DNA from: Octopus vulgaris
Lineage: Eukaryota
Length of the DNA: 64,000 nucleotides
NCBI GenBank assembly: GCA_951406725.2
Contig: OX597816.1
Span: 107,136,001 to 107,200,000 of the forward strand
Reading direction: 5' to 3'
In this document: positions 62 through 56,934 of the stretch, one piece after another
Layout of the letters: each line of letters opens with the position of its first letter
Position numbering within the stretch: the first letter of the stretch is position 1
Notes under the pieces: generated by a model
Database searches by the model: none
What the model saw: only the letters and a program-made list of their open reading frames with translations
What the model was told of the DNA's origin: nothing
Program-made: the position numbers and the translations under genes

Positions 62-1470
62 ATATGTGTGCCTGTGTTTGTCCCCCCAACATCGCTTGAC
101 AATCGATGGTGGTGTGTTTACATCACCGTAACTTAGCGGTTTGGCAAACGAGACCGATAGAATAAGTACTAGTTTATTCAGATTCAGTTTTTCTTAGGCA
201 AGTGTCTCCTGTTATAGCTCTGAGCAGACAAAACTTTTATGAGTGGATTTGGTGGATGGAAACTAAAAGAAGCCCATTTTATGTACATATGTGTATGTGT
301 GTGTTTCTATCGTTTTATACTGACATCATGTGATAGTTGTGTCACAGCCACACAAGCAGAACCATTTGTTTCTAGACTTTTATGAAAACATGTATGGCCC
401 CTGGGGAAACACTACCTTCTTGGAAACAGATGAGAATTAGTGACAAGAAGGGTATCTGGCCATATAAATTCTGTTTGACCCATGCAAGCATGGAAAAGGG
501 GATATTAAAATGATGAAGATGGTGATGACCACCACTCCATGGAGGCCAATCATATTTATGTGGACCAATTGGAATGCTTTCAGCTTTGTCACGAGATTTG
601 AAGAACTCATCTGGTTCATTAATTTGTATGGGAAGTGAAAATACTGTTGAATAATTCATTCAATACTTCACTAACATTTTAAGCATCTGCTCTTGATGTA
701 AACAATGCCCAACATTCATAATGAATGAAAGCTGTTACTTTTGATAACTTAGAGAAAACTCAAGGAGTGCTTTTGTGATTTTTAAAAACCCAATTTTCCT
801 TTAGTGCACTTTCATAACTCATGAAGCATTTTATTTCATTTACACTTTCTGTAAGTGACATTCATAAATGCAGTTTTCATTATAAATTCACTCTTCATAT
901 CAGGGGAATAGCTTTCTTTGTAAATTTCAACTTATCCATTTTGAGATTTATAATACTATAGCAGACAGTGATCCCACACACAATATGTAATATATGCAAT
1001 ATTATTAAGAAATAACTGGAAAGGATGTAAAGGTATTTGTGTATATCTGTCCACCTGTCTGTCTGTCTGTCTGCCTGTTTGTCTATTATTGGTTTGTCTC
1101 TCTCTATCTGTAAATGTGTTCTACACTATTTTGTGTGTGTTAAAGCATCTTGTTTACTCGAAACGAAGTTGGAAAGCTGCTGTGATGATGATGTCTATTG
1201 AAGTAGATACAAATGCTTACAGCTGTTGTTTTGTCTTCTAACAATTAGACTGTTTTTATTTCCTTGATAATCTTCTTCAGATTATCTCCACGGAGTGATT
1301 ATTTTATGTTCTCCAAAAGTGGAGATAATTTCAATAAATGAAGAATTTATGTTGTATCGCATATAATATAACTTTACTAACAACCTTCAGTTATTTCTCT
1401 CACCTGTTTTCATCTTTATGTATGTATGTGTGCATGTGTGTATAATAATAATAATAATAATAATAATAAT

Positions 1471-3043: not shown

Positions 3044-5270
3044 TGAAGGTTACGGAGAGGGTCATAGACCTACTAATTAGAGAGAGAGTTAGTTTAGATG
3101 AGATGCAGTTTGGGTTCGTGCCAGGGAAAAGTACCACTGATGCTATATTCCTGGTAAGGCAGCTGCAGGAGAAATACCTAGCCAAAGATAAGTCCCTGTA
3201 CCTGGCTTTCGTTGACATGGAGAAAGCTTTTGATAGGGTCCCCCGATCCCTTATCTGGTGGTCAATGAAGAAACTAGGGATAGATGAATGGCTGGTGAGG
3301 ACTGTGCAAGCCATGTACAGAGATGCCGTAAGTAAGGTTAGGGTTGGCAACATGTACACAGAAGAATTCAAAGTAGAGGTTGGGGTCCACCAGGGTTCAG
3401 TACTCAGCCCCCTCCTATTTATCATAGTACTCCAGGCAATTACGGAGGAATTCAAGACAGGCTGTCCCTGGGAGCTCCTCTACGCTGACGACCTTGCTCT
3501 TATTGCTGAGTCACTATCAGAACTGGAGGAGAAGTTCCAGGTGTGGAAGGAGGGTTTAGAATCGAGGGGCCTTAGAGTCAACCTAGCTAAAACCAAAGTA
3601 CTAATAAGTAGGAAGGTAGACAATCCACAAATGTCTTCAGGAAGATGGCCCTGCTCGATCTGTAGAAAAGGTGTAGGTAGAAACTCTATAAGATGTACCC
3701 AGTGTAAGCTATGGACACATAAGAGGTGCAGCAATGTCAAAGGTAGGCTAACTGGGAAGATAGTTTTTGTATGTGGCAGATGCTCGGGAGCATTAACCTC
3801 CGAAAATCTGCAGAAAACAACTTCCGTCACTTTCCAGGGGGAAAAACTAGAAGTAGTTGATAGCTTCCGTTATCTAGGTGACCAAGTCAGTAGTGGGGGT
3901 GGGTGCGCTGAAAGTGTAACTGCTAGAATAAGAATAGCCTGGGCAAAGTTTAGGGAGCTCTTACCTCTGCTGGTGACTAAAGGCCTCTCGCTCAGAGTAA
4001 AAGGCAGACTGTATGATGCGTGTGTACGAACAGCCATGCTACATGGCAGCGAAACATGGGCCGTGACTGCTGAGGACATGCGTAAGCTCGTGAGGAATGA
4101 AGCCAGTATGCTCCGATGGATGTGTAATGTCAGTGTACACACTCGACAGAGCGTTAGCACCTTGAGAGAAATGTTGTACCTAAGAAGCATCAGTTGTGGT
4201 GTGCAAGAGAGACGATTGCGCTGGTATGGTCATGTGGCGAGAATGGATGAAGATAGGTGTGTGAGAAAGTGCCAATCCCTAGCAGTTGAGGGAACCCGTG
4301 GAAGAGGTAGACCCAGGAAAACCTGGGACGAGGTGGTGAAGCACGACCTTCGAACTTTAGGCCTCACTGAGGAAATGACCAGCGACCGAGACCTTTGGAA
4401 ATATTCTGTACGTGAGAAGACCAGGCAGGACAAGTGAGCCCAGCCCACTTATGAATGCCTTTCCTCCCTTGGACACAAAGACCTGTTGAGGCAAGCGAAG
4501 TCGATATAGAACCTCATCCGACGACAGACACCCATGCCAACCCCCCATGCTTGCGAAGACATGTTGGGGCAAGCGAAATCAAAATCGAAATCGAAACCGA
4601 ATTGAACCAGCCAGGATCCCTGGCCTGGTGGTACGTAAAAAGCACTATCCGACTCGTGGCCGTGGCACGTAAAATACTCCAATGCGACCGTACGACAGGC
4701 ACCCATGCCAACCCCCTTTGCTTGTGTAGACATGTTGGGGCAAGCGAAATCGAAATCGAATTGAACCAGCCAGGATCCCTGGTCTGGTGGTACGTAAAAA
4801 GCACTATCCGACTCGTGGCCGTGGCATGTAAAATATTCCAATGCGACCGTACGACAGGCACCCATGCCAACCCCTTTGCTTGTGAAGACATGTTGGGGCA
4901 AGCGAAATCGAAATCGAATTGAACCAGCCAGGATCCCTGGTCTGGTGGTACGTAAAAAGCACTATCCGACTCGTGGCCGATGCCAGCACTGCCTCGACTG
5001 GCTTCCGTGCCGGTGGCACATAAAATACACCAATCTGACCGTGGCCGTTGGCCAGCCTCGCCTGGCACCTGTGCCAGGTGGCATGTAAAAAGCACCCACT
5101 ACACTCACGGAGTGGTTGGCGTTAGGAAGGGCATCCAGCTGTAGAAACATTGCCAGATTAGACTGGAGCCTGGTGCAGCCTTCTGGCTTCCCAGAACCCC
5201 AGTCGAACCGTCCAACCCATGCTAGCATGGAGAACGGACGTTAAACGATGATGAGGATGATGATGATGAT
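3044..5270 (+). mobile_element. 5'-truncated RTE-clade LINE (copy A): RT with internal PHD-like finger, modular 3' UTR, (GAT)n tail
   Basis: Open frame to the stop at 4437 with QFGF, AFVDMEKAFD, GVHQGSVLSP, LLYADD, FRYLG, RRLRWYGHV and RGRGRPRKTW. Ends in gatgat repeats. The predicted ORF start at 2824 is microsatellite read-through. Confidence 0.95.
4521..4979 (+). repeat. Tandem repeat of ~159 bp x ~2.8 in the copy A 3' UTR
   Basis: Units start with acgacagRcacccatgcc at 4521, 4692 and 4851. They are near identical; the first has extra gaaatc hexamers. Confidence 0.95.
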
Positions 5271-5277
5271 ACATATA

Positions 5278-5490
5278 TACAGGGTATGGTGAATATATTG
5301 TTGTCTGAGTTATACAAAAATGAAAATAACACTAACATCTCATTTTAACAGATATAATTACCAAAATTGCATAAAAATAACTTGAAATACTAAAGAGTAA
5401 ATTTATTCAATAAAATTACCATTGGCTTCAACCATGGCCTCCATACAACTTCAGAATCTCCTGCAACTCTTCTGGACGGTCATCGTACAG
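5278..5490 (-). mobile_element. Probable Tc1/mariner terminal fragment
   Basis: Begins ta|cagggt. The minus strand resembles a transposase C-terminus (VQKSCRRF..MEAMVEANG). Confidence 0.4.
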
Positions 5491-5509
5491 TTTACTTTTC
5501 ACTATAAGC

Positions 5510-6130
5510 GAGAGGCCATTGTCGCCAGCAGAGGCAGGAGCTTTCTGAACTTTGCCCAGGCTATTCTTATTCTTTTCTACTCTAGGCACAAGGCATGAAA
5601 TTTTGGGGGAGGGGGCCAGTGGATTAGATCAACTCAAGTATGCAACTGGTACTTAATTTATTGACTCCGAAAGGATGAAAGGCATAGTTAACCTCAGTGG
5701 AATTTGAACTCAGAACATAAAGACAGATGAAATACCGCTAAGCATTTTGCTTGGCGTGCTAACGTTTCTGCCAGCTCACCGCCTTCCAGGTTACTCTTAT
5801 TCTAGCAGCTATGCCCTCTGAGGATCTACTCCCACCACAAACTTGGTCACCTAGGTAGTGGAAGCTATCAACTACTTCTAGTTTTTCCCCCTGGCATGTG
5901 ATGGAATATGTTTTCTGTAAATCTGTGCCTTATTGCCCCCTGTGCATCTGCCACATACAAAAACTATCTTCCCAATTAACCTTCCTTTGATATTAGTGCA
6001 CCTCTTATGTGTCCATAGCTTACTCTGGGTACATTTTACAGAGTTTCTACCTACGCCTCTTCTACAGATCGAGCAGGGTCATTTACCTGAAGGGCATTCT
6101 GATTTGTCTGCCTTCCTACTTACTAGGACT
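5510..6130 (-). mobile_element. Decayed third copy of the PHD-containing RTE LINE, interrupted by a SINE
   Basis: The minus strand matches the SGKWPCSICR..WTHKRC..VCGRC..LEVVDSF region. The SINE at ~5575-5785 is flanked by an imperfect duplication ccaggYtaYtcttattct. Confidence 0.85.
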
Positions 6131-6684
6131 TTAAATAATATAAATGTAAAATAAGTAAATAACAGAAGTAAAATATCCAATTATGAGATATATAAAAAAA
6201 ATCTAAATACATATACATTCATAGTCATTTACGTATAATTAAAAATAAAACCATACAAAACCTAAATTAATCAGTTAATGCCCAATTCTATATGTTTACT
6301 TGTATTTAATTAGAAATATAGTGAAAATAAAATTAAAATAAATTTTTGAATATTCTAATTTATTTACATTTATCCTAGCTGGTTTCACAACATCTTAATA
6401 ATGATGAATATTACCAAAATAATTGCATTCATAGTAACTCAATTTACGAGTTATATAAAGATAACTACATTAAGTAAACAAAGGTGGATAGTCTCAATTT
6501 AAATAACAGTTAACTTACAACTGTTACCAGTGAATGCATTATGTATTTTTAGTCACTTGATCTTTACTAAGCTACTCTCTGCTGTTTCTGCATACTGGGT
6601 TAATATAGAAAAATATTCTTGAAACCTTTTAATCCATTTGCACTTTCTTTTTATATCACATTGACTTACATTATGAATAGTTAT

Positions 6685-7088
6685 AGGCACAGGAGTGGCT
6701 GTGTGGTCAGTAGCTTGCTTACCAACCACATGGTTCCGGGTTCAGTCCCACTGCATGGCACCTTGGGCAAGTGTCTTCTGCTATAGCCTTGGGCTGACCA
6801 AAGCCTTGTGAGTGGATTTGGTAGACGGAAACTGAAAGAAGCCTGTCGTATATATGTATATGTATAGATATGTGTGTGGGTGTTTGTGTGTCTGTGCTTG
6901 TCTCCCCAACATCGCTTGACAACTGATGCTGGTGTGTTTATGTACCCATAACTTAGTGGTTCGGCAAAAGAGACCAATAGAATAAGTACTAGGCTTACAA
7001 AGAATAAGTCCTGGAGTTGATTTGCTTGACTAAAGGCGGTGCTCCAGCATGACTGCAGTGAAATGACTGAAAGAAGTAAAAGAGTAAA
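6685..7088 (+). mobile_element. tRNA-derived SINE, family 1 (representative copy)
   Basis: A box tggctgtgtgg, B box ggttcagtcc, internal TA/TG microsatellite, gtaaaaga tail. Related copies at ~1-170, 2575-2715, 7215-7498, 15872-16240, 28985-29550, 32625-33047(-), 50590-50770(-), 53865-54225, 55165-55583(-), 61199-61630 and 61815-62018. Confidence 0.9.
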
Positions 7089-9806: not shown

Positions 9807-10244
9807 CTTTATATATAAACCTCATTATATTTAAACAGTATTTTATTATTCTTGAAAAATTTGGTTTTACTAATGAAGTGGAAACAGCTTTAATTTATGA
9901 CATGTTTCATTTGTTTGAATAAAATAATAAAATTGAATTGAATTTATCATTTAATCATCATCGTTTAACGTCCGTTTTCCGCGCTATAATGAATAAAATA
10001 ATTTAATTGTTCAATTTATTATTGAAATATGAGAGTAGAAAAACAGCCAACAACTGATAAAGGGTCATTCTTTGTGTTGTTTGTCTTGTTTTACATTTGT
10101 ATCTTTCGTTGTTCAAAAAAATAGTTCCTATTCTATGTACTCGTACTTTGTAATTTTTTGTTGTACACATTTTGTGATGTCCAGTGCCCATATATGCATG
10201 TATACACACATAAATGTAAGTATGTACATATACGTATGTATATA

Positions 10245-10291
<47 letters not shown>

Positions 10292-11892
10292 CCATCCCCT
10301 TTTAGTACCCTCCCGCCTCGTAATATCCTACGTTTTTATTTCTTACGAACCTACACCAACCCTTCCTGCCATCGTTCCTCCTTACCCCAACCTTCCCCAC
10401 TGGTTGCTCCCCTATATTACCCGCCTCAACTGGACCCCCCCTCCCCAACTCAACTCTAGAATATCTGTATTTCTTTCCTCTACCTAATTACGTTACTCAG
10501 TGACGATAACGAATGTCCACTGCTAACACCAGCTCCTGCCCACGGCGTGGTCAAGTTGGAAGAGAGATCAAAAGAAAAATACCACGAAAACTATCACCAC
10601 CACAACAACCCTCCTCTTCTCAGGCGCCGAATCCCCCCGTCCCCCCCACATCTCCTTCCCAGTTTTCAGAGTTGGCACTATCAATGTTGGTACATTGACA
10701 GGCAAGTCTAGTGAGATTGTAGAGATGCTAGAGAGAAGACAGGTTGATGTATGCTGCATACAAGAGGTAAGATGGAGAGATGCTTCGGCTAGGGTCCTCA
10801 CGGGCAAGGCACTTAGGTACAAACTCTACTGGCAAGGTAACGCGGAAGGTGTAGGGGGTGTAGGCATTCTCCTTGCGGAGGAATGGGTGGATAAGGTCAT
10901 AGAGGTTGTCAGGGTTTGTGATAGAGTGCTTAAGCTCAGGTTGGTCCTACAGAGTGGCACAGCTATGATTATCTCAGCCTATGCCCCACAAGCGGGACTA
11001 CCAAATGATCAGGACAGGACAACTTTTATGATACCCTTCTGCAGGCTACTTCAAAGACTAGTAACAAGGACCTCATCTTTGTAGGTGGAGATTTTAATGG
11101 GCATGTTGGGCGGGAATCGGGTATCTTCACTGGGGTACATGGTGGCTATGGTATTGGCACCAGAAATGATGAGGGAACTAGACTGCTGGAATTCTGTGAT
11201 GCATGTAACCTTTCAATCTGCAACACTAACTTCAAGAAGCCAGTCTGCCACCTTATAACTTATCAGTCAGGAGACTCCGCTAGCCAAATAGACTTCATCC
11301 TCACCAGACAACGGGATGCAGGGTTGCTCTTGAATACAAAGACCCTCCCGGGTGAAGAATGTATCCCTCAGCATAGACTAATCATCAGTGACTTTAAGCT
11401 TGAGGCCAGAAGGACTCCAAGAAACAAACCAATCCAGAAAAGAAGGATTTAGAGGCTAAAGAACCCTTCGCATGGTCAGAAATTTAGGGACATACTCATC
11501 AAGAAATTTGATGAGAGGGAGGAGGAGCTTCAGACGTCAGACATAGAAGGTAGCTGGGAATTCCTACGGGACAGCTTGTTGAGTGCCACAGACCAAGTCT
11601 GTGGATTGTGCAAAGTCCCTTCCAGACCTAGAATTACGTGGTGGTGGAATAGTGCAGTAGATAAAGCCATCTGTGAAAAGAGACGGGCCTGGAAAGCCTG
11701 GAAGGAATGGGGGCAGCAGGGAACTGTACCAGATAGCCAAAAGGGAGGCTGGGCGGCAGGTATACATTGCCAAAGATGTAGCAGAAAAGAAGAAGTTTGC
11801 CAATGTCCAGCGTCGCGAGGATCAAAGAGCTGAAGTATTTCGGATTGCCAGACAGTGTGTCAGAGAAAATAGCGATGTTATAGGAGAGAAAT

Positions 11893-13818
11893 GTGTCCGC
11901 ATGGATGATGGGGCACTTGCTTTTTACTACTAGTGAAAAGAAAGAGGCTTGGAGAAGCCATTATGAAAGACTGCTGAATGAGGAGAATGAATGGGAGGAG
12001 GAGAGCCTGCCAAATGTTGACCCAGTAGAGGGACCAGCTACCCGAATAGACAGCTCCCTTGTAGATAAGGCAATTAAGGATATGAAACCAGGCAAAGCCC
12101 CTGGCCTATCAGGAATCACTGCTGAGATGCTTAAAACAGCTGGCTATGTGGGCTATGCCATAGTCACCCGCATTGTAAACCAGGTGGTTCACAATGGAGT
12201 CATACCCAATGACTGGTGCAGCAGCACCATAGTCAACTGCTACAAGGGTAAGGGTGATGCTCTAGATAGAAATAACTACAGAGGTATCAAACTGTTGGAC
12301 CAGGTGATGAAGGTCTCAGAGAAGGTCATAACCAATCTCATTAGGGAGAGAATTTGTTTAGATGAAATGCAGTTCGGTTTTGTACCAGGTAGAAGCACCA
12401 CTGATGCTATATTCCTGGTCCGACAACTGCAGGAGAAGTACCTAGCTAAAGATAAACCCCTCTACATAGCTTTTGTAGACTTGGAGAAAGCCTTTGACAG
12501 GGTTCCCCGTTCCCTTATCTGGTGGTCGATGCGGAAACTGGAGATTGAAGAATGGCTAATAAGGGCTGTACAGGCTCTATACAGAGAGGCTGTCAGCAAG
12601 GTTAGGATTGGCAACGAATATAGTGAAGAATTCCGGGTAGAAGTAGGTGTGCACCAGGGCTCAGCCCTCAGTCCCCTTTTATTCATCATAGTCCTTCAGG
12701 CAATAACAGAGGAATTCAAAACGGGATGCCCCTGGGAGCTCCTCTATGCCGATGACCTAGCTCTCATAGCAGAATCACTACCGGAACTAGAAGAGAAATT
12801 TCGGGTGTGGAAGCAAGGGTTGGAATCAAAGGGCCTTAGAATAAATGTAGCAAAGACCAAAGTATTAGTAAGCAGCAAGAGGTACTCAGCACACATCCCC
12901 TCGGGTAGGTGGCCCTGCTCAACCTGTAGGAAAGGTACAGGTAGAAACTCCATAAGATGCACCCAATGTAAGTTATGGACACATAAGAGGTGCAGCAACA
13001 TTAAAGGGAAATTAACAGATAAGATAGCTTTCATGTGCGGCAGATGCACAGGGACAATAGACACAACAGACACTCAGAAAACAGATTCCATCACACTCCA
13101 GGGAGAGAAACTAGAAGTAGTTGATAGTTTCCGCTACCTGGGTGACCAAGTTAGTAGCGGAGGTGGATGCACAGAGAGTATCACCACTAGAATACGAATA
13201 GCCTGGGCAAAGTTCAGAAAGCTCCTACCCCTACTGGCAACAAAAGGTCTCTCCCTCAGAGCAAAAGGTAGATTGTATGATGCATGTGTGCGAACTGCCA
13301 TGCTTCACGGTAATGAAACATGGGCTGTGACTGCAGAAGACATGCGTAGACTTGAAAGAAATGAAGCTAGCATGATCCGCTGGATGTGTAGTGTCAGTGT
13401 GCACGCAAAACAGAGTGTAAGTATCCTGAGAGAAATGCTGGATATAAGAAGCATCAGATGTGGTGTGCAAGAGCGACGCTTGCGATGGTATGGTCATGTG
13501 CTGCGGATGGATGAAGAGAGATGTGTGAAGAAGTGCCACTCCCAAACAGTTGAAGGTATCAGGGGGAGAGGTAGACCCAGGAAGACATGGGATGAGGTGG
13601 TCAAGCATGACCTCAGAGCATTGGGCCTCACTGAGGCAATGGCGAAGGACCGAGATCTCTGGAGATATGCTGTGACTACAAAGACCCGGGCTGCTTTCTG
13701 CAGCAATTCCACATACCCCCTACCCATTCTAAGTACCCCGGATCCCCAAAGTACCCTGGATCCCCAAAGTACTCCGATCCCCAAAGTACCCCGGACCTCG
13801 TTGCCCCCGTGCCGCTGA
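11893..13818 (+). CDS. Reverse transcriptase portion of RTE ORF (641 aa open segment) with C4HC3 finger
   Basis: GKAPG, NYRGIKLL, QFGF, DLEKAFD, GVHQGSALSP, YADD, then CSTC-CTQC-HKRC-CGRC, then FRYLG and the RTE C-terminal RRLRWYGHV. Confidence 0.9.
   Translation: MSAWMMGHLLFTTSEKKEAWRSHYERLLNEENEWEEESLPNVDPVEGPATRIDSSLVDKAIKDMKPGKAPGLSGITAEMLKTAGYVGYAIVTRIVNQVVHNGVIPNDWCSSTIVNCYKGKGDALDRNNYRGIKLLDQVMKVSEKVITNLIRERICLDEMQFGFVPGRSTTDAIFLVRQLQEKYLAKDKPLYIAFVDLEKAFDRVPRSLIWWSMRKLEIEEWLIRAVQALYREAVSKVRIGNEYSEEFRVEVGVHQGSALSPLLFIIVLQAITEEFKTGCPWELLYADDLALIAESLPELEEKFRVWKQGLESKGLRINVAKTKVLVSSKRYSAHIPSGRWPCSTCRKGTGRNSIRCTQCKLWTHKRCSNIKGKLTDKIAFMCGRCTGTIDTTDTQKTDSITLQGEKLEVVDSFRYLGDQVSSGGGCTESITTRIRIAWAKFRKLLPLLATKGLSLRAKGRLYDACVRTAMLHGNETWAVTAEDMRRLERNEASMIRWMCSVSVHAKQSVSILREMLDIRSIRCGVQERRLRWYGHVLRMDEERCVKKCHSQTVEGIRGRGRPRKTWDEVVKHDLRALGLTEAMAKDRDLWRYAVTTKTRAAFCSNSTYPLPILSTPDPQSTLDPQSTPIPKVPRTSLPPCR
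13731..13797 (+). repeat. 17-18 bp minisatellite x ~4 (aagtaccccggatcccca) extending the copy B ORF
   Basis: Directly visible. Translates as STPDPQ STLDPQ STPIPK. Confidence 0.85.
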
Positions 13819-14068
13819 CACGTTAAAATGCTCGAACCGATCGTGACGATGCTGGACCCTCCGGCCCCTGTGCAGGTGGCACGTAAAAAGCACCCAATCC
13901 ACTCACGGAGTGGTTGGCGTTAGGAAGGGCATCCAGCCGTAGAAACTCTGCCAGATTCAGACTGGAGCCTGGAGCGGCCCCTGGCTTCCCAGACCCGGTC
14001 GAACCGTCCAACCCGTGCTAGCGCGGAAAGCGGACGTTAAATGATGATGATGATGATGATGATATATA

Positions 14069-14260: not shown

Positions 14261-17175
14261 TATTTCAGTATTATGTGTTAAAAGTGAAACAAAAACGTTT
14301 CTCTATTTTATGTCAGATACTTTCACTTTAACAATAAAAATAATAATAACAATTGAATTATATGTAGTAAGTAATAATTAAAATCAAACTAAAGTATAAT
14401 ATAATCGTAACATAACAAAAGTAAAAATAGCAATTGGTATAAAATTGCATCAATGACTTGAACTTGAATAAGTGGTTTCACATGAATGGGAATAAATTAA
14501 AAATAAAATTAGTATGCAGAAATAGAATAGTCCAGATGGATAATAAAAAATTAAATTAAAGAAAAGACTATTGTCTATAAAGTATACAATGTAGAGAAAA
14601 AAGAAGATTTGAACGCATGGAGGAAAGCACCTTCGAAAAGTATCTTGGTGTGACTATGAAAGATATCTAATCAGAGGCGGTAAGTTCGCCACAATAGAAG
14701 CAAGGTTCGAGTCAACGGAGCGTGCAAGGGAGTACTTGACTCAAACTTGCAAAGTGGAAATATTTTATTTTTACCTTTATATCTGGGACATAGGATGTCC
14801 CGGAAAAAAATTTTAAATGCCCCCCACCCCCCACCCCAGAAGTAGAGGTAGGCTGGATTGTACCAACACTTCTATACAAGAGGGAGGACAAGATACAATT
14901 GATTGAAATTACAAGAGACGGGCTAACAATTCCAGTCTGTTATATATTTTGAGTATTGTTATCACTAGCGATATCAAGATATAACTTTGTATTTTGTATT
15001 TTATGTGTAGATGTATATATATAGATGTACATGTGATATGTACACATATATATACATGCACTAGCACTATGACTCGGCCACGACGGGTCTTTAATGCTAG
15101 TATACATATATGTATATATATATATATCATCGTCGTCATCATCATCATCTTTTAATGTCCATTTTCCGTGCAGGCAAGGGATGGATGGTTTTACTAGAGC
15201 TGGCAAGCTGGAGAGTTGTACCAGGTTCCAGTTTGATTTAGCCTGGTTTCTACAGGTTGATGCCCTTCTAATGCCAACCACTTTACAGTGTGTACTGAGT
15301 GCTTTTATGTGGCACAGGCACAAGAGCTTTTTACATGGCACTAGCACAGGACTCTTGTAGGCCAGTCCTCTTCCCCGGGGGAGTGGCCTTAACACTTCTA
15401 CTGTGGCGGACTTGTCTTCTTGTGTGCATTTATTTGTATTTACATATATGTATAGAAGGAGGAGGGCCCCTTTGGTCATAAATGATCATGGGATTGTATG
15501 TGAAAGTTCCTCTCCGAGGTACAAGTCCGGGAAAGGTTGTTTATGGAGAGCCAGCAGTTGCCCATGCATAGCAGCCTCTCCTCTCCATGCTCCATGCCAC
15601 CAATGTCATTCAGGAGAAAGGCAAAGGCTGATACAGTTTGGCTCTTGTGACATCGCAACTCATTTCTACAGCTGAGTGAACTGGAGCAATGTGATATAAA
15701 GCGACTTGCTCAAGAACACAACAGAGAGCTCTGTTCAGGAATCAAACTCAATACCTCATGATTGTGAGTCCAATGCTCTAACCACTGATGTATGTATGTA
15801 TACATCTAACCAGAAGAGAGAAAGAAAAAATACTAATTTTATGTCTCAAGATATTCATAGTTATGTATGCATAGGCACAGGTGTGGCTGTGTGGTAAAAA
15901 GCTTGCTTCCCAACCACATAGTTCTGGGTTCAGTCCCACTGTGTGGCACCTTTGGCAAGTGTCTTCTAGTATAGCCTCGGGCTGACCAAAGCCTTGTGAG
16001 TGGATTTGTTAAACTGAAAGAATCCTGTTGTGCATGTGTGTGTGTATATATATATATATGTATGTATTTATGTGTGTCTTTGTCCCCGTAACCTAGCAGT
16101 TCAGCAAAAGAGACTGGTAGAATAAATACTAGGCTTACAAAGATTAAGTCCTAGCGTCGATTTCTTTGACTAAAGGTAGTGCTCCAGTATGGCTGGTTTC
16201 AAATGACTGAAATGTGTAAAAAAGCATATATATGTGTAAGAGTAAATACCTTATCATCATCATTGTCATCACTTTCTTTTTACATCAATAGGTTTTCTTG
16301 CTCAGTCTAGTAATAGCATTTCTTGTATTTATTACCTTTCTATTGCAAATTTTTCTGTTGTTGTTCACATGTTAGCATAAACTGGAATCACATCCCAAAT
16401 CAATTATCTCCTTGGTTACTGCATAAGTTAGTAAGGTCAAGTTTATCTTGGTCAACTTTGATTCACCTGATATTTCCTGGCCTCTTATCTTTTATATGGC
16501 ATTTAATATTATCATTACTTTTTCTTTTGATTATCAAGGTTTTATTGTCTAATCTCAGAATGGCTGAATAATTAAGTAATTCACTTTGAAACCACAAGAT
16601 CTTGGGTTCAATCTCAATGTGTGATATTTTGAGCATAAGCCATTTTCTCAAACTTGAGTCAATTAATACCTTGTGAGTGAAATTAGGAAGACACAAATTA
16701 CATAGTAGACTTTCAGGTAGCTTGCACCTGAATTTCAAAATATACAACCTTGTCACATCTGTGGCATACTGATTTGTTTGGAGAACTATGTTTACCTTTT
16801 TATTGGAGGAAGCAGATATATCTGCTCAAAATTTCATTACCCTTAGCTGTGGAAAGCAGTTTTATATTCCAATATACTTTTTGTTGCAGAATGTCATATT
16901 TGAAATTGTTTTCTGTTGAAATATGTCCAACCCTTTCATTACCATATTTTTCTACTTTCGTACACTACTTTAGTTTCAATAAATTTTGAAAATAATGAAG
17001 AATTATAGGTGCAGGCATTGCTGTGCGGTTTCCTAACCACATAGTTCCAGGTTCAGTTCCACTACATGACACTTTGGACAAGTGTCTTCTGTTATAGCCT
17101 CAGGCTAACCAAAGCTTTGTGTATAAAGCAATAACAGCAGCAGCAATGAAATGGCGTGTGCACACACACACACAG

Positions 17176-19857: not shown

Positions 19858-20125
19858 ATCATCATCATCATCATCATCATCATTTAACGTCTGTTTTCCA
19901 TGCTAGCATGGATTGGACAGTTTGACCGGCGTCTGGTAAGCCAGGAGGCTGCGCCAGGCTCCAATCTGATCTGATAGTGTTTCTACAGCTGGATGCCCTT
20001 CCTAACGCCAACCACTCCATGAGTGTAGTGGGTGCTTTTTATGTGCCACCGGCACAGGAGCCAGAGGAGGCTGGCAAACGGCCACAGTCGGTTGGTGCTT
20101 TTTATGTGTCACTGACAATCAGGCA
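19858..20125 (-). mobile_element. RTE 3'-tail fragment (very short 5'-truncated copy)
   Basis: Reverse complement of the 5040-5270 tail. Related pieces at 15127-15350(-), 52030-52500(+), 52565-52660(-) and 56590-56925(+). Confidence 0.85.
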
Positions 20126-51467: not shown

Positions 51468-53289
51468 GTAAGATATGAATGAAAACAAGTTCTTTATGAT
51501 ATTTTTTTCATGTCATTTGTATTAAAATTTTTCTTGTCAGTTTTGCTCTAGGTCAACCATGCTTGTGTAGATGTTGTTGCTGTTGTTTTATCCTAGCTCA
51601 ACTTTCATTGAAAGAGATTTATATCCGAAGTTTTTCCTGCTGTAACACTCCCAATCTTTTTTTTTAACTTTTTACCCATAGTATATTTAGGATCACTGAG
51701 GTGTGGCAGTGGTTGTGTGTGTGTGTGTGTGTGGATTTTTCTTTATAAGTACATGATTTTGAGTTCTACCTCACTGCATGATACTCTGAATAAATGTTTT
51801 TTACTAGACTCTTTGGATCAACTAAACCGTAGTAAAGAAATACATACATTGGAGAATGTCATTGAAGATATGTAATACTTAGAAAAAAAAAAAATGGATG
51901 ATCATAGCTGGAATGTGTAAACCAGTGGTTCTTAAGCATTTTTTTGCAGCCCCACTGTTGTTATTCTTAGCACCCACCTATGTGGTGAGTGAGGTATCAC
52001 AACTGAACTAACATACCTGTACAGAAGCTTGTTGTGGTGAGAAAGGATCTTCAGACATTGGGCTTCACAGACGGAATGACAAGAGACCATGACTCTGGCA
52101 GTTTGCTTTGCTTGAGAAGACATGTCAGGCTAAGTAAAATCATGGTTGTCCTGGCATACAAGCATGTCCCTGCATCCCTCTTCAACTGAGTGATCCTAAT
52201 CTTGTGGGTTCTTGGCTGCTGGCGCCACATAAAAGTCACCAGTACCAGTACCATGTAAAAGCACTCATGCTGGTGCTGTATAAAGGCATCCTGTACATGC
52301 TGTAGAGTGGTTGGCATTAGGAAGGGCATCCAGCCATAGAAACCATGCTAAAACAGACATGGAAACCAGGCAGCACTTCAGCTGGCCAGCTTCTGTCAAA
52401 CAGTCCCACCCATGCCAGCATGGAAAATGAACATCAAATGATGATGATGATAATGATTATGATGATGATAATTATTATTATTATTATGATGATGATGATG
52501 ATATATATATATATTATATATTCTTTTTTGGAATGATGAATCTTGAAGCTAATAAAGCTATAAATCATCATCATCATCATCATCTAATATTCGCTTTCCA
52601 TGCTGACATGGGTTGGACAGTTTGAACAGGAGCTAGTGAGGCTGGGAGCTGTACCAGGTCATTTTATGACCAACATCTGGTCATAAAATGATGCCTCTGA
52701 ATAAGTCTCTATCCAACCCATGCCTGCAAATAAAAAAATGACTGAGTGAATAAACAAATGTTTAGGAATACATTATTTAGTCTGTCCTCTCTATTTATGT
52801 TGGGAATGTATAGTTTCAGGGAAATTTAACTGGCATTTCTAGCTGGTGAAGTGACTGCATATAGTTTCCATTGTTCACTTGTTGCTAGAGCAGATGTAAG
52901 TGTGCTGATGTATAAGCTAATAACTTGGTTGTTGTTCTGGCAAAACCACTTATATTTATTGGTTGCTGTTGATCCTTGGAACATTCAGCTTTCAGGTGTC
53001 AATAAGTGTGTGCTGGTTGAGCAATGAGGTTAATATAATTGATAAATCTACTCCCTCAAAATTCTTATTCTGGTAACTAATTAATGGTGACTAGCAGAAT
53101 TGTCAAGGCAAAAGGAAAAAGCTTTGTTCTACATTTTCAAGTGAAATCCTGTTGAGGTTAACTTTGTCTTTCATCCACCTGTCAAGTGGCTGATAAAATA
53201 AATAAGTCAAATACAGGATTTTATTAATAGGCTGTTCCCTAATGCCTACATTTATAGCTTTATGTTACAAGGCTTTATTATTACATATC

Positions 53290-56582: not shown

Positions 56583-56934
56583 CTGTAATGTCTTCAAATC
56601 ATTGCTCTTGTGCCAAATGAAACTGAACTTTAAGGAGATGACAGAGGACTGAGATATATGGCACCTTGCTGTATTCAAGAAGACCTGCCCACCTCTTTGA
56701 GATCCTAAAACCAACATTGGGATCCTAAAACCAAGGTACCTCATAAAAAGCATTGATATGGGTGCTGGTGCCTCACAAAAAGCACTGGGTCTAGTGCCAC
56801 ATAAAAAGCACTGTGATGGTGCCACATAAAATGCACTGGTGATGGTTCCACATGAAAAGCGTCTTGTACACTCTGTAAAATGGTTGGCATTAGGAAGGAC
56901 ATCCAGGTGTAGAAACCAAGTCAAAACAACTTTT

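Follow-up and report, generated by a model that had tools for sequence, protein, structure and literature searches.

Why does the tail of a LINE in the octopus genome carry seven copies of one short motif that can be drawn as a pseudoknot, and where did this motif come from? The window analysed here is the whole stretch of 64,000 nucleotides of Octopus vulgaris DNA (contig OX597816.1, positions 107,136,001 to 107,200,000, forward strand), which is animal DNA rich in repeats. It holds two LINEs, designated A and B, and the tails of a further family, C, together with shorter copies:

3044 to 4437, plus strand: 5'-truncated, RTE-type ORF of LINE A, with an RT domain, a PHD-like insert and the stop codon at 4435–4437
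5247 to 5270, plus strand: (GAT)n tail of A
10290 to 14051, plus strand: near full-length element B, with APE and RT domains (Exo_endo_phos, RVT_1) and a broken frame
19866 to 20122, minus strand: copy of an A-type tail alone, with two modules of which the terminal one is intact
56717 to 56916, plus strand: family C tail made of head-to-tail 26-nt units, one module each, in a 4 + 5 bp register
52212 to 52300, plus strand, and 15294 to 15351, minus strand: further family C-like 26-nt arrays
52305 to 52455 (plus), 52566 to 52625 (minus), 9955 to 9986 (minus) and 478 to 524 (plus): very short tail-only copies, one of them tail-to-tail with another

The ORF of A matches the Pfam domain RVT_1 with an E value of 2.9e-28, and its PHD-like match is weak. 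A and B share 79% DNA identity across 3044–4409. Element B, about 3.76 kb long, has the RTE-clade traits of a short element and a (GAT)n microsatellite tail, and relatives of A and B encode one protein each (about 1040–1100 amino acids, APE and RT) on contigs of 3.4–4 kb. Because single APE and RT proteins and a (GAT)n tail are found together, A and B fit the RTE clade; the assignment also draws on an indirect link to a published 5'UTR domain. The clade label is in part our own presumption, and the tree held no named reference. In this quick tree, which was built from the first 60 of 120 proteins, the ORFs of A and B fall inside a clade of 25 rows with an SH-aLRT support of 100. The family C array has a period of 26 and 3.9 copies according to TRF. 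The tail-only copies at 19866–20122 and 15136–15351 may be truncated LINE copies.

Other repeats surround these elements. A fragment of a different LINE lies between (TAA)n tracts at 1480–1900 and presumably represents a restriction-like endonuclease end of the R4/Dong type. Further RTE ORF fragments (5481–5573 and 5786–6132, minus strand) face A and are split by a SINE-like insert, and SINE copies, which we take to be tRNA/CORE-like, are located at 2560–2720, 6685–7000 and 1–230. A scan of the window for bacterial promoters and terminators found nothing and is not relevant to animal DNA.

In the tail of A, we confirmed the seven motif copies of the preliminary description, at about 4628, 4662, 4787, 4821, 4945, 5013 and 5078; 1000 dinucleotide shuffles of 4438–5110 gave a mean of 0.009 copies and a maximum of one. 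The 159-bp repeat is also present (4586–4979, 2.5 copies, 97% matches by TRF). The repeat units, the module around each motif and the modules of element B are as follows:

4521 to 4979, plus strand: repeat units of 171, 159 and 129 nt, every unit containing a hairpin and at most two broken modules
4621 to 4646, plus strand: module copy 1, stem 1 without its 5' strand
4655 to 4680, plus strand: module copy 2, stem 2 lost
4780 to 4805, plus strand: module copy 3, stem 1 without its 5' strand
4814 to 4839, plus strand: module copy 4, stem 2 lost
4938 to 4963, plus strand: module copy 5, stem 1 without its 5' strand
5006 to 5031, plus strand: module copy 6 (motif 5013), both stems possible with 4 + 4 bp
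5070 to 5096, plus strand: module copy 7 (motif 5078), both stems possible, at the same position as in relatives
13869 to 13894 and 13808 to 13833, plus strand: modules of element B, the latter (within the copy at 13805 to 13836) without stem 2

The region had been described as an array of pseudoknot-capable units. For the array as a whole this description was not confirmed, and it applies to only two of the seven copies (5013 and 5078). The other five are broken: in those at 4628, 4787 and 4945, stem 1 has lost its 5' strand, and in those at 4662 and 4821 stem 2 is gone. Because the same broken forms recur in every 159-bp unit, the stem losses predate the 159-bp multiplication. At 5013, stem 1 has 4 bp and an outer C-A mismatch; at 5078 it has 5 bp, two of them G-U, and the loop is 2 nt long. 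The variants at 13869 (plus) and 20056 (minus) do keep their pairing, as had been proposed (stem 1, 5/5; stem 2, 4/4), and the module number indeed varies by subfamily, with seven in A and two in B. All module copies are on the sense strand, either 3' of the RT ORF or within tail-only copies. A covariance model of stem 1 only gave 15 window matches below E 0.05, ten of which were training rows, and all of them lie in LINE tails on the sense strand; six of its 11 matches outside the window below E 0.1 were also training sequences, and the model missed the locus L378 and two window training rows.

One explanation for the multiplication is that the modules form a selected, dose-dependent array, in which RT binding, nuclease blocking or translation control would rise with the number of knots. 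The module has been multiplied in three families whose units differ (about 66 and 159 nt in A, about 61 nt in B and 26 nt in C), and the family C unit is exactly one module. Relatives outside the window carry a single module copy per locus, and read joints that skip 66 and 558 nt indicate that the unit number varies and that subfamilies with fewer units exist. On the other hand, a stem is missing in five of the seven A copies and one of the two B copies, and the broken forms were themselves triplicated. Summed contig depth in run X3, a rough measure rather than a copy number, was 31–33 million over the segment that we call the anchor (described below), 1.6–4.7 million at the ORF end and 0.11–1.7 million over the 159-bp region, far below both; with a depth this low, the long array would seem to be a minority form. 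The same UTR region also expands unrelated tandem repeats (18 bp × 3.7 in B and 20 bp × 1.9 in C), which points to a general duplication hot spot. We regard a dose-dependent array as quite unlikely, and most of the seven-copy array probably reflects decay.

Sequence variation was read from four of the 24 listed runs, one as raw reads and three as contig sets. The change 5084 T>C, found in 62–74% of the contig depth and in 10 of 12 raw reads, yields a Watson-Crick pair in copy 7, and 5020 A>G (34–42% of the contig depth) completes the fifth pair of copy 6. The extra loop base 5076 is lost in 9–17%. Thus, the common variants among those listed complete the pairing of the module. Base 5195, downstream of the modules, is missing in some copies, as the reads suggest.

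The same preliminary description assigned an H-type geometry to the module. This geometry stands for the intact copies, in which stem 1 shows compensatory changes across lineages, and falls for the five broken copies of A. Two crossing stems are possible in the two A copies named above, at 13869, 20056 and 56812, and in 6 of the 11 module loci outside the window. Stem 1 reads CGAGA/TCTCG in L035, GTGA/TCAC in L132 and YGTGC/GCACR in the window. In an alignment of 18 rows, 78% of the cells were paired with 14 both-side changes, and in seven representatives 92% were paired with six both-side cells; none of 500 shuffles reached either result, and these pair counts are inflated by kinship and score a structure on the same sequences from which it was derived. 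The representatives are what remained of the 18 rows once near-duplicates, more decayed copies and rows containing indels had been removed, and the five broken A copies and four further L026-family copies are absent from both alignments. The both-side changes fall in three of the five stem 1 pairs and represent few independent events. Two further measures, the number of pairs changed on both sides and the number of further pair types, were no better than shuffles, which equalled them in 165 and 224 of 500 cases for the 18 rows and in 33 and 66 of 500 for the seven representatives. From these sequence comparisons, stem 1 is probably real.

Stem 2 is 96% paired in the seven representatives, with two of its four pairs invariant and the others mostly toggling between G-C and G-U, with one A-U cell. 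This near-invariance may mean that stem 2 is kept as sequence, and the knot is therefore likely rather than proven. The module might instead be a simple hairpin formed by stem 1, or a conserved sequence motif that serves as a site for a protein or promoter factor, with the pseudoknot being coincidental. The robust both-side changes are all in stem 1, and conserved RTE 5'UTR sequence has been speculated to bind regulators (Kojima 2018, PMC5786205, in the accessible part). The strict form of a generic pseudoknot pattern also picks up many AT-rich chance rows; of its 23 rows in the window, 17 fall outside modules and tails, and chance rows account for 6 of 12 in the anchored loci. However, stem 2 shows the pairing and toggling given above even though no search pattern included its 3' strand. 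In family C (56812), stem 2 gains the pair that stem 1 loses and the total stays at nine, and only 3 of 240 control loci with GGTG..AAAA, which were chance bacterial and phage matches from two loose pattern scans, fit the module geometry. We consider the hairpin or motif explanation unlikely, and it is probable from the aligned sequences that the module is an H-type pseudoknot.

In nested-only folding with ViennaRNA, which cannot score pseudoknots, and with flanks of 35 and 30 nt, the upstream hairpin beats stem 1 at 5013 and 5078 (pair probabilities of 0.05 and 0.00), and stem 1 wins at 13876 (0.89) and 20049 (0.72). A search of Rfam with the window region and seven loci gave a best E value of 0.09, with only snoRNA and miRNA noise. 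Rfam gave no support for resemblances to pistol ribozyme P1, preQ1-I or the HCV IRES, which are impressions of our own.

Between the last module and the (GAT)n repeat, the tail of A continues as follows:

5097 to 5116, plus strand: stem-loop (predicted fold) in the spacer from module to anchor
5117 to 5154, plus strand: anchor, homologous to the RTE 5'UTR segment that precedes the start codon; candidate second pseudoknot
5163 to 5165, plus strand: CTG at the start-codon spacing of relatives
5209 to 5244, plus strand: terminal stem-loop (predicted fold), which translates to RPTHASMENGR and a stop

Relatives were searched with the anchor plus TAAAA, with no stem base fixed, and 120 loci of about 140 estimated were obtained from metagenomes. 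The module is found at equal spacing in 11 of the 120: nine near-identical loci (the L026 family), L035 and L132. Copy 7 of A (5070–5096) is colinear with L026, L035 and L132, and a separate scan added L378, a truncated copy that starts within the module. Three lineages outside the window thus carry the module, and in one of them it belongs to the 5'UTR of an autonomous RTE (L035), where it lies directly upstream of the anchor with an APE ORF downstream (tblastn E 2e-40). In all four RTE 5'UTRs recovered outside the window (L056, L001, L035 and L390), the in-frame ATG of the ORF with the APE domain is located at +28, +29, +32 and +38 from the anchor. Such a fixed spacing between anchor and start codon is IRES-like; nearer out-of-frame ATGs occur in L035 (+27) and L390 (+9). 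Only L035 of these four has the module, and L001, L056 and L390 have the anchor with a different upstream sequence. The anchor is absent from all four RTE 3' ends outside the window (L389, L392, L393 and L394). Seven loci (L006, L009, L079, L112, L378, L382 and L384) combine the anchor with the same terminal tail and have no ORF. The first 420 nt of element B, a single and possibly incomplete copy, contain neither module nor anchor.

Several features of these loci are recorded here in their own right. By eye, about two thirds or more of the 120 loci belong to one SINE-like family without the module. This abundant family (L017 and most of L016–L135) starts just 5' of the anchor and also lacks the partner strand of the second knot. 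In L006, L056 and L020, which are other RTE lineages, the site ahead of the anchor where the module would lie is occupied by a simple hairpin with a 7-nt A-rich loop. Two RTE starts occur in L390, with anchors at 199 and 4006. The loci L001–L011 and L376–L394 are animal retrotransposon or SINE DNA in prokaryote genome bins (GTDB set), likely as contamination. A locus search with a single C-terminal query returned no relative among 116 stretches, and anchor scans of viral contigs gave four matches that look unrelated in one scan and none in the other. The published Ceph-type motif is absent from the window and the loci.

The anchor itself may fold into a second H-type pseudoknot, which in RTE 5'UTRs would lie 11–20 nt upstream of the in-frame ATG. 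In this candidate knot, the loop of a GGA/TCC stem can pair with TGCC at 5151–5154 after an A-rich linker. The second-knot strand pairs at least four bases in 21 of 26 representatives, compared with 10.9 in shuffles and 12.2 in random windows. The 26 were picked by hand, three are window copies and their families are not independent; the loop side was set by the search, and the partner strand was in no pattern. At the position of the start codon, family C has an ATG (+27; copy at 52310), and A and B have CTG. The former start-codon position is about 26 codons upstream of the stop of the terminal segment (5163–5244; 52359–52440), which could be a relic mini-ORF. The terminal 36 nt before the repeat encode the same 11 residues that end the protein P0001. 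A loose pattern for this C-terminal ending was matched by 19 of the 120 relatives, and the motif ends 12 of the 25 rows in the clade that holds A and B in the quick tree. The terminal stem-loop is also found in bipartite elements outside the window.

How, then, did a start-codon domain come to lie behind an ORF? By sequence comparison, the order and homology of hairpin, module, spacer, anchor, start-codon position, last ORF codons and GAT tail are established, and the window tails join a segment homologous to an RTE 5'UTR to the extreme RTE 3' end. Bipartite RTE derivatives and the exchange of tails between elements have been documented (available portions of PMC5786205 and PMC7245038). Because the module stands just before the start codon in a related element, it probably began as a front-end signal and was later relocated to the back end, where it was duplicated. 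The tail was likely captured from an internally deleted, bipartite derivative, presumably by a template switch or by recombination, and would have replaced the LINE's own end; the 5'UTR-matching segment now lies past the stop codon and ahead of the former 3' end. The upstream module copies would then have been duplicated by template slippage in a region prone to repeat expansion. The earlier idea of a native, multimerised 3' element was not borne out, since the evidence favours the relocation of a single-copy RTE 5'UTR element and most copies in A are broken. Against the relocation, the module is found in just one of four RTE 5'UTRs, and its support outside the window comes from three lineages, with 9 of 11 loci belonging to one family, plus the truncated L378. 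Taking these points together, we consider it fairly probable that the LINE lineage took over a bipartite tail, composed of a 5'UTR piece and a 3' end, part of which was later duplicated, likely by slippage.

Several functions had been suggested for the module. A luteoviral-type −1 frameshift signal does not agree with the data: no slippery heptamer precedes any of the 15 modules, and the modules lie outside the ORF, the nearest being 184 nt past the stop codon (criteria from the accessible part of bioRxiv 10.1101/2024.12.07.627321). Translation control in general is plausible, mainly as an ancestral role. Recognition of the module by the RT found no support; the non-autonomous L006, L009 and L384 keep the terminal stem-loop without the module, and the stem-loop is more likely than the module to be recognised by the RT. 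Nuclease blocking by the module is also unsupported; Rfam gave no match to a known Xrn1-resistant class (none better than E 0.09).

A related explanation is that the module blocks an exonuclease or stalls the RT, which would leave short 3' RNAs or truncated copies that start at the module. Copies starting at or in the module do exist (20122 on the minus strand of the window, L132 and L378), and the contig depth rises about tenfold at 5088. However, this rise is partly due to other subfamilies that have only the anchor in common and leave loose ends, and known frameshifting pseudoknots failed to stall Xrn1 (PMC10321173, in excerpt). The ends of the raw reads do not pile up at modules, with 26 reads, too few for a strong test. 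Blocking or stalling appears very unlikely.

A mechanism that accords with the relocated bipartite tail can be outlined. In the 5'UTR, the tandem knots would dock the ribosome, which would be set at the AUG 11–20 nt past the second knot. Beside the tail, one intact terminal module and the anchor could be kept because they help to load the RNA onto the ribosome or onto newly made RT. The same loading role is conceivable in bipartite elements and SINEs, and extra module copies would add little. Taken on its own, this mechanism is tentative, and we hold it to be somewhat improbable. A variant appears unlikely: a tandem double-pseudoknot RTE element would place the ribosome on the start codon and, moved 3' here, would act as a translation enhancer or a loading site for ribosome or RT, with independent amplification of the first knot tuning its strength. 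What merits testing is the start-codon domain, which is conserved and probably knotted, together with its shift to the 3' end; the array amounts to less than first thought.

The module resembles the frameshift knots of luteoviruses (BWYV and ScYLV) in being a compact H-type fold with a short loop 1 and an A-rich loop crossing stem 1. Stem 2 has four pairs in the module and three in the BWYV pseudoknot. Loop 1 varies between C, A and T in the modules, whereas ScYLV is described, in the part of the literature available, with a protonated cytosine triple. At the other end of the tail, the stem-loop at 5209–5244 before the repeat fits the 3'-terminal stem-loop of zebrafish ZfL2, which is recognised by ORF2 (PMC4176376, in excerpt); ZfL2 belongs to the L2 clade, and the modules sit 110–590 nt 5' of the window stem-loop.

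RTE elements are also known to carry self-cleaving ribozymes at their 5' ends, HDV-like ones and, in Perere-3, twister variants (PMC8501958 and PMC6765202, in part). These are likewise pseudoknotted 5'UTR RNAs with a proposed role in cap-independent translation, and they differ from the module domain in lying at the 5' end rather than next to the start codon. No HDV-like ribozyme was found here: our own pattern for the nested double pseudoknot with conserved L3, used with no positive control, had no match in six loci or the window UTRs, and Rfam gave none either. The octopus RTE in the accessible part of PMC9115989 has a 3'UTR consisting mostly of microsatellite, unlike the window tails.

The closest parallels are the bipartite RTE derivatives and RTE-tailed SINEs (PMC5786205 and PMC7245038, as far as available), which likewise combine an RTE 5'UTR piece, an RTE 3' end and a microsatellite tail. 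Those SINEs have a tRNA, 5S or 7SL head, whereas the window tail follows a LINE RT ORF and has one part multiplied. By eye, the L026 family matches the published RTE 5'UTR domain in the PMC5786205 supplement both in its upstream AGCC-loop-GGC hairpin and in its spacing; the window units align to L026, and their link to the published domain is indirect, through that family. In the published domain the loop is longer and the A-rich part differs, and the anchor string is absent from the accessible supplement. Separately, A/G and T/C columns of the published domain co-vary by eye at the place of stem 1 in several families. The available parts of both papers propose no RNA structure for the 5'UTR piece, and we found no description of the module structure or its 3' placement in the mostly open full-text literature that was covered (Repbase, patents and most supplements lie outside this scope).

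Why RTE-derived SINEs and deleted elements keep a 5'UTR piece was left open in the accessible part of PMC5786205. A double knot relocated to the 3' end would, if true, explain this retention in bipartite elements and SINEs, and the two-knot model at a fixed distance from the start codon makes it testable. RTE UTRs are under optimisation for RNA-based gene insertion (PMC13708176, in excerpt), and a defined structural element could matter there. A LINE that carries the piece at its 3' end offers a natural experiment on position versus loading.
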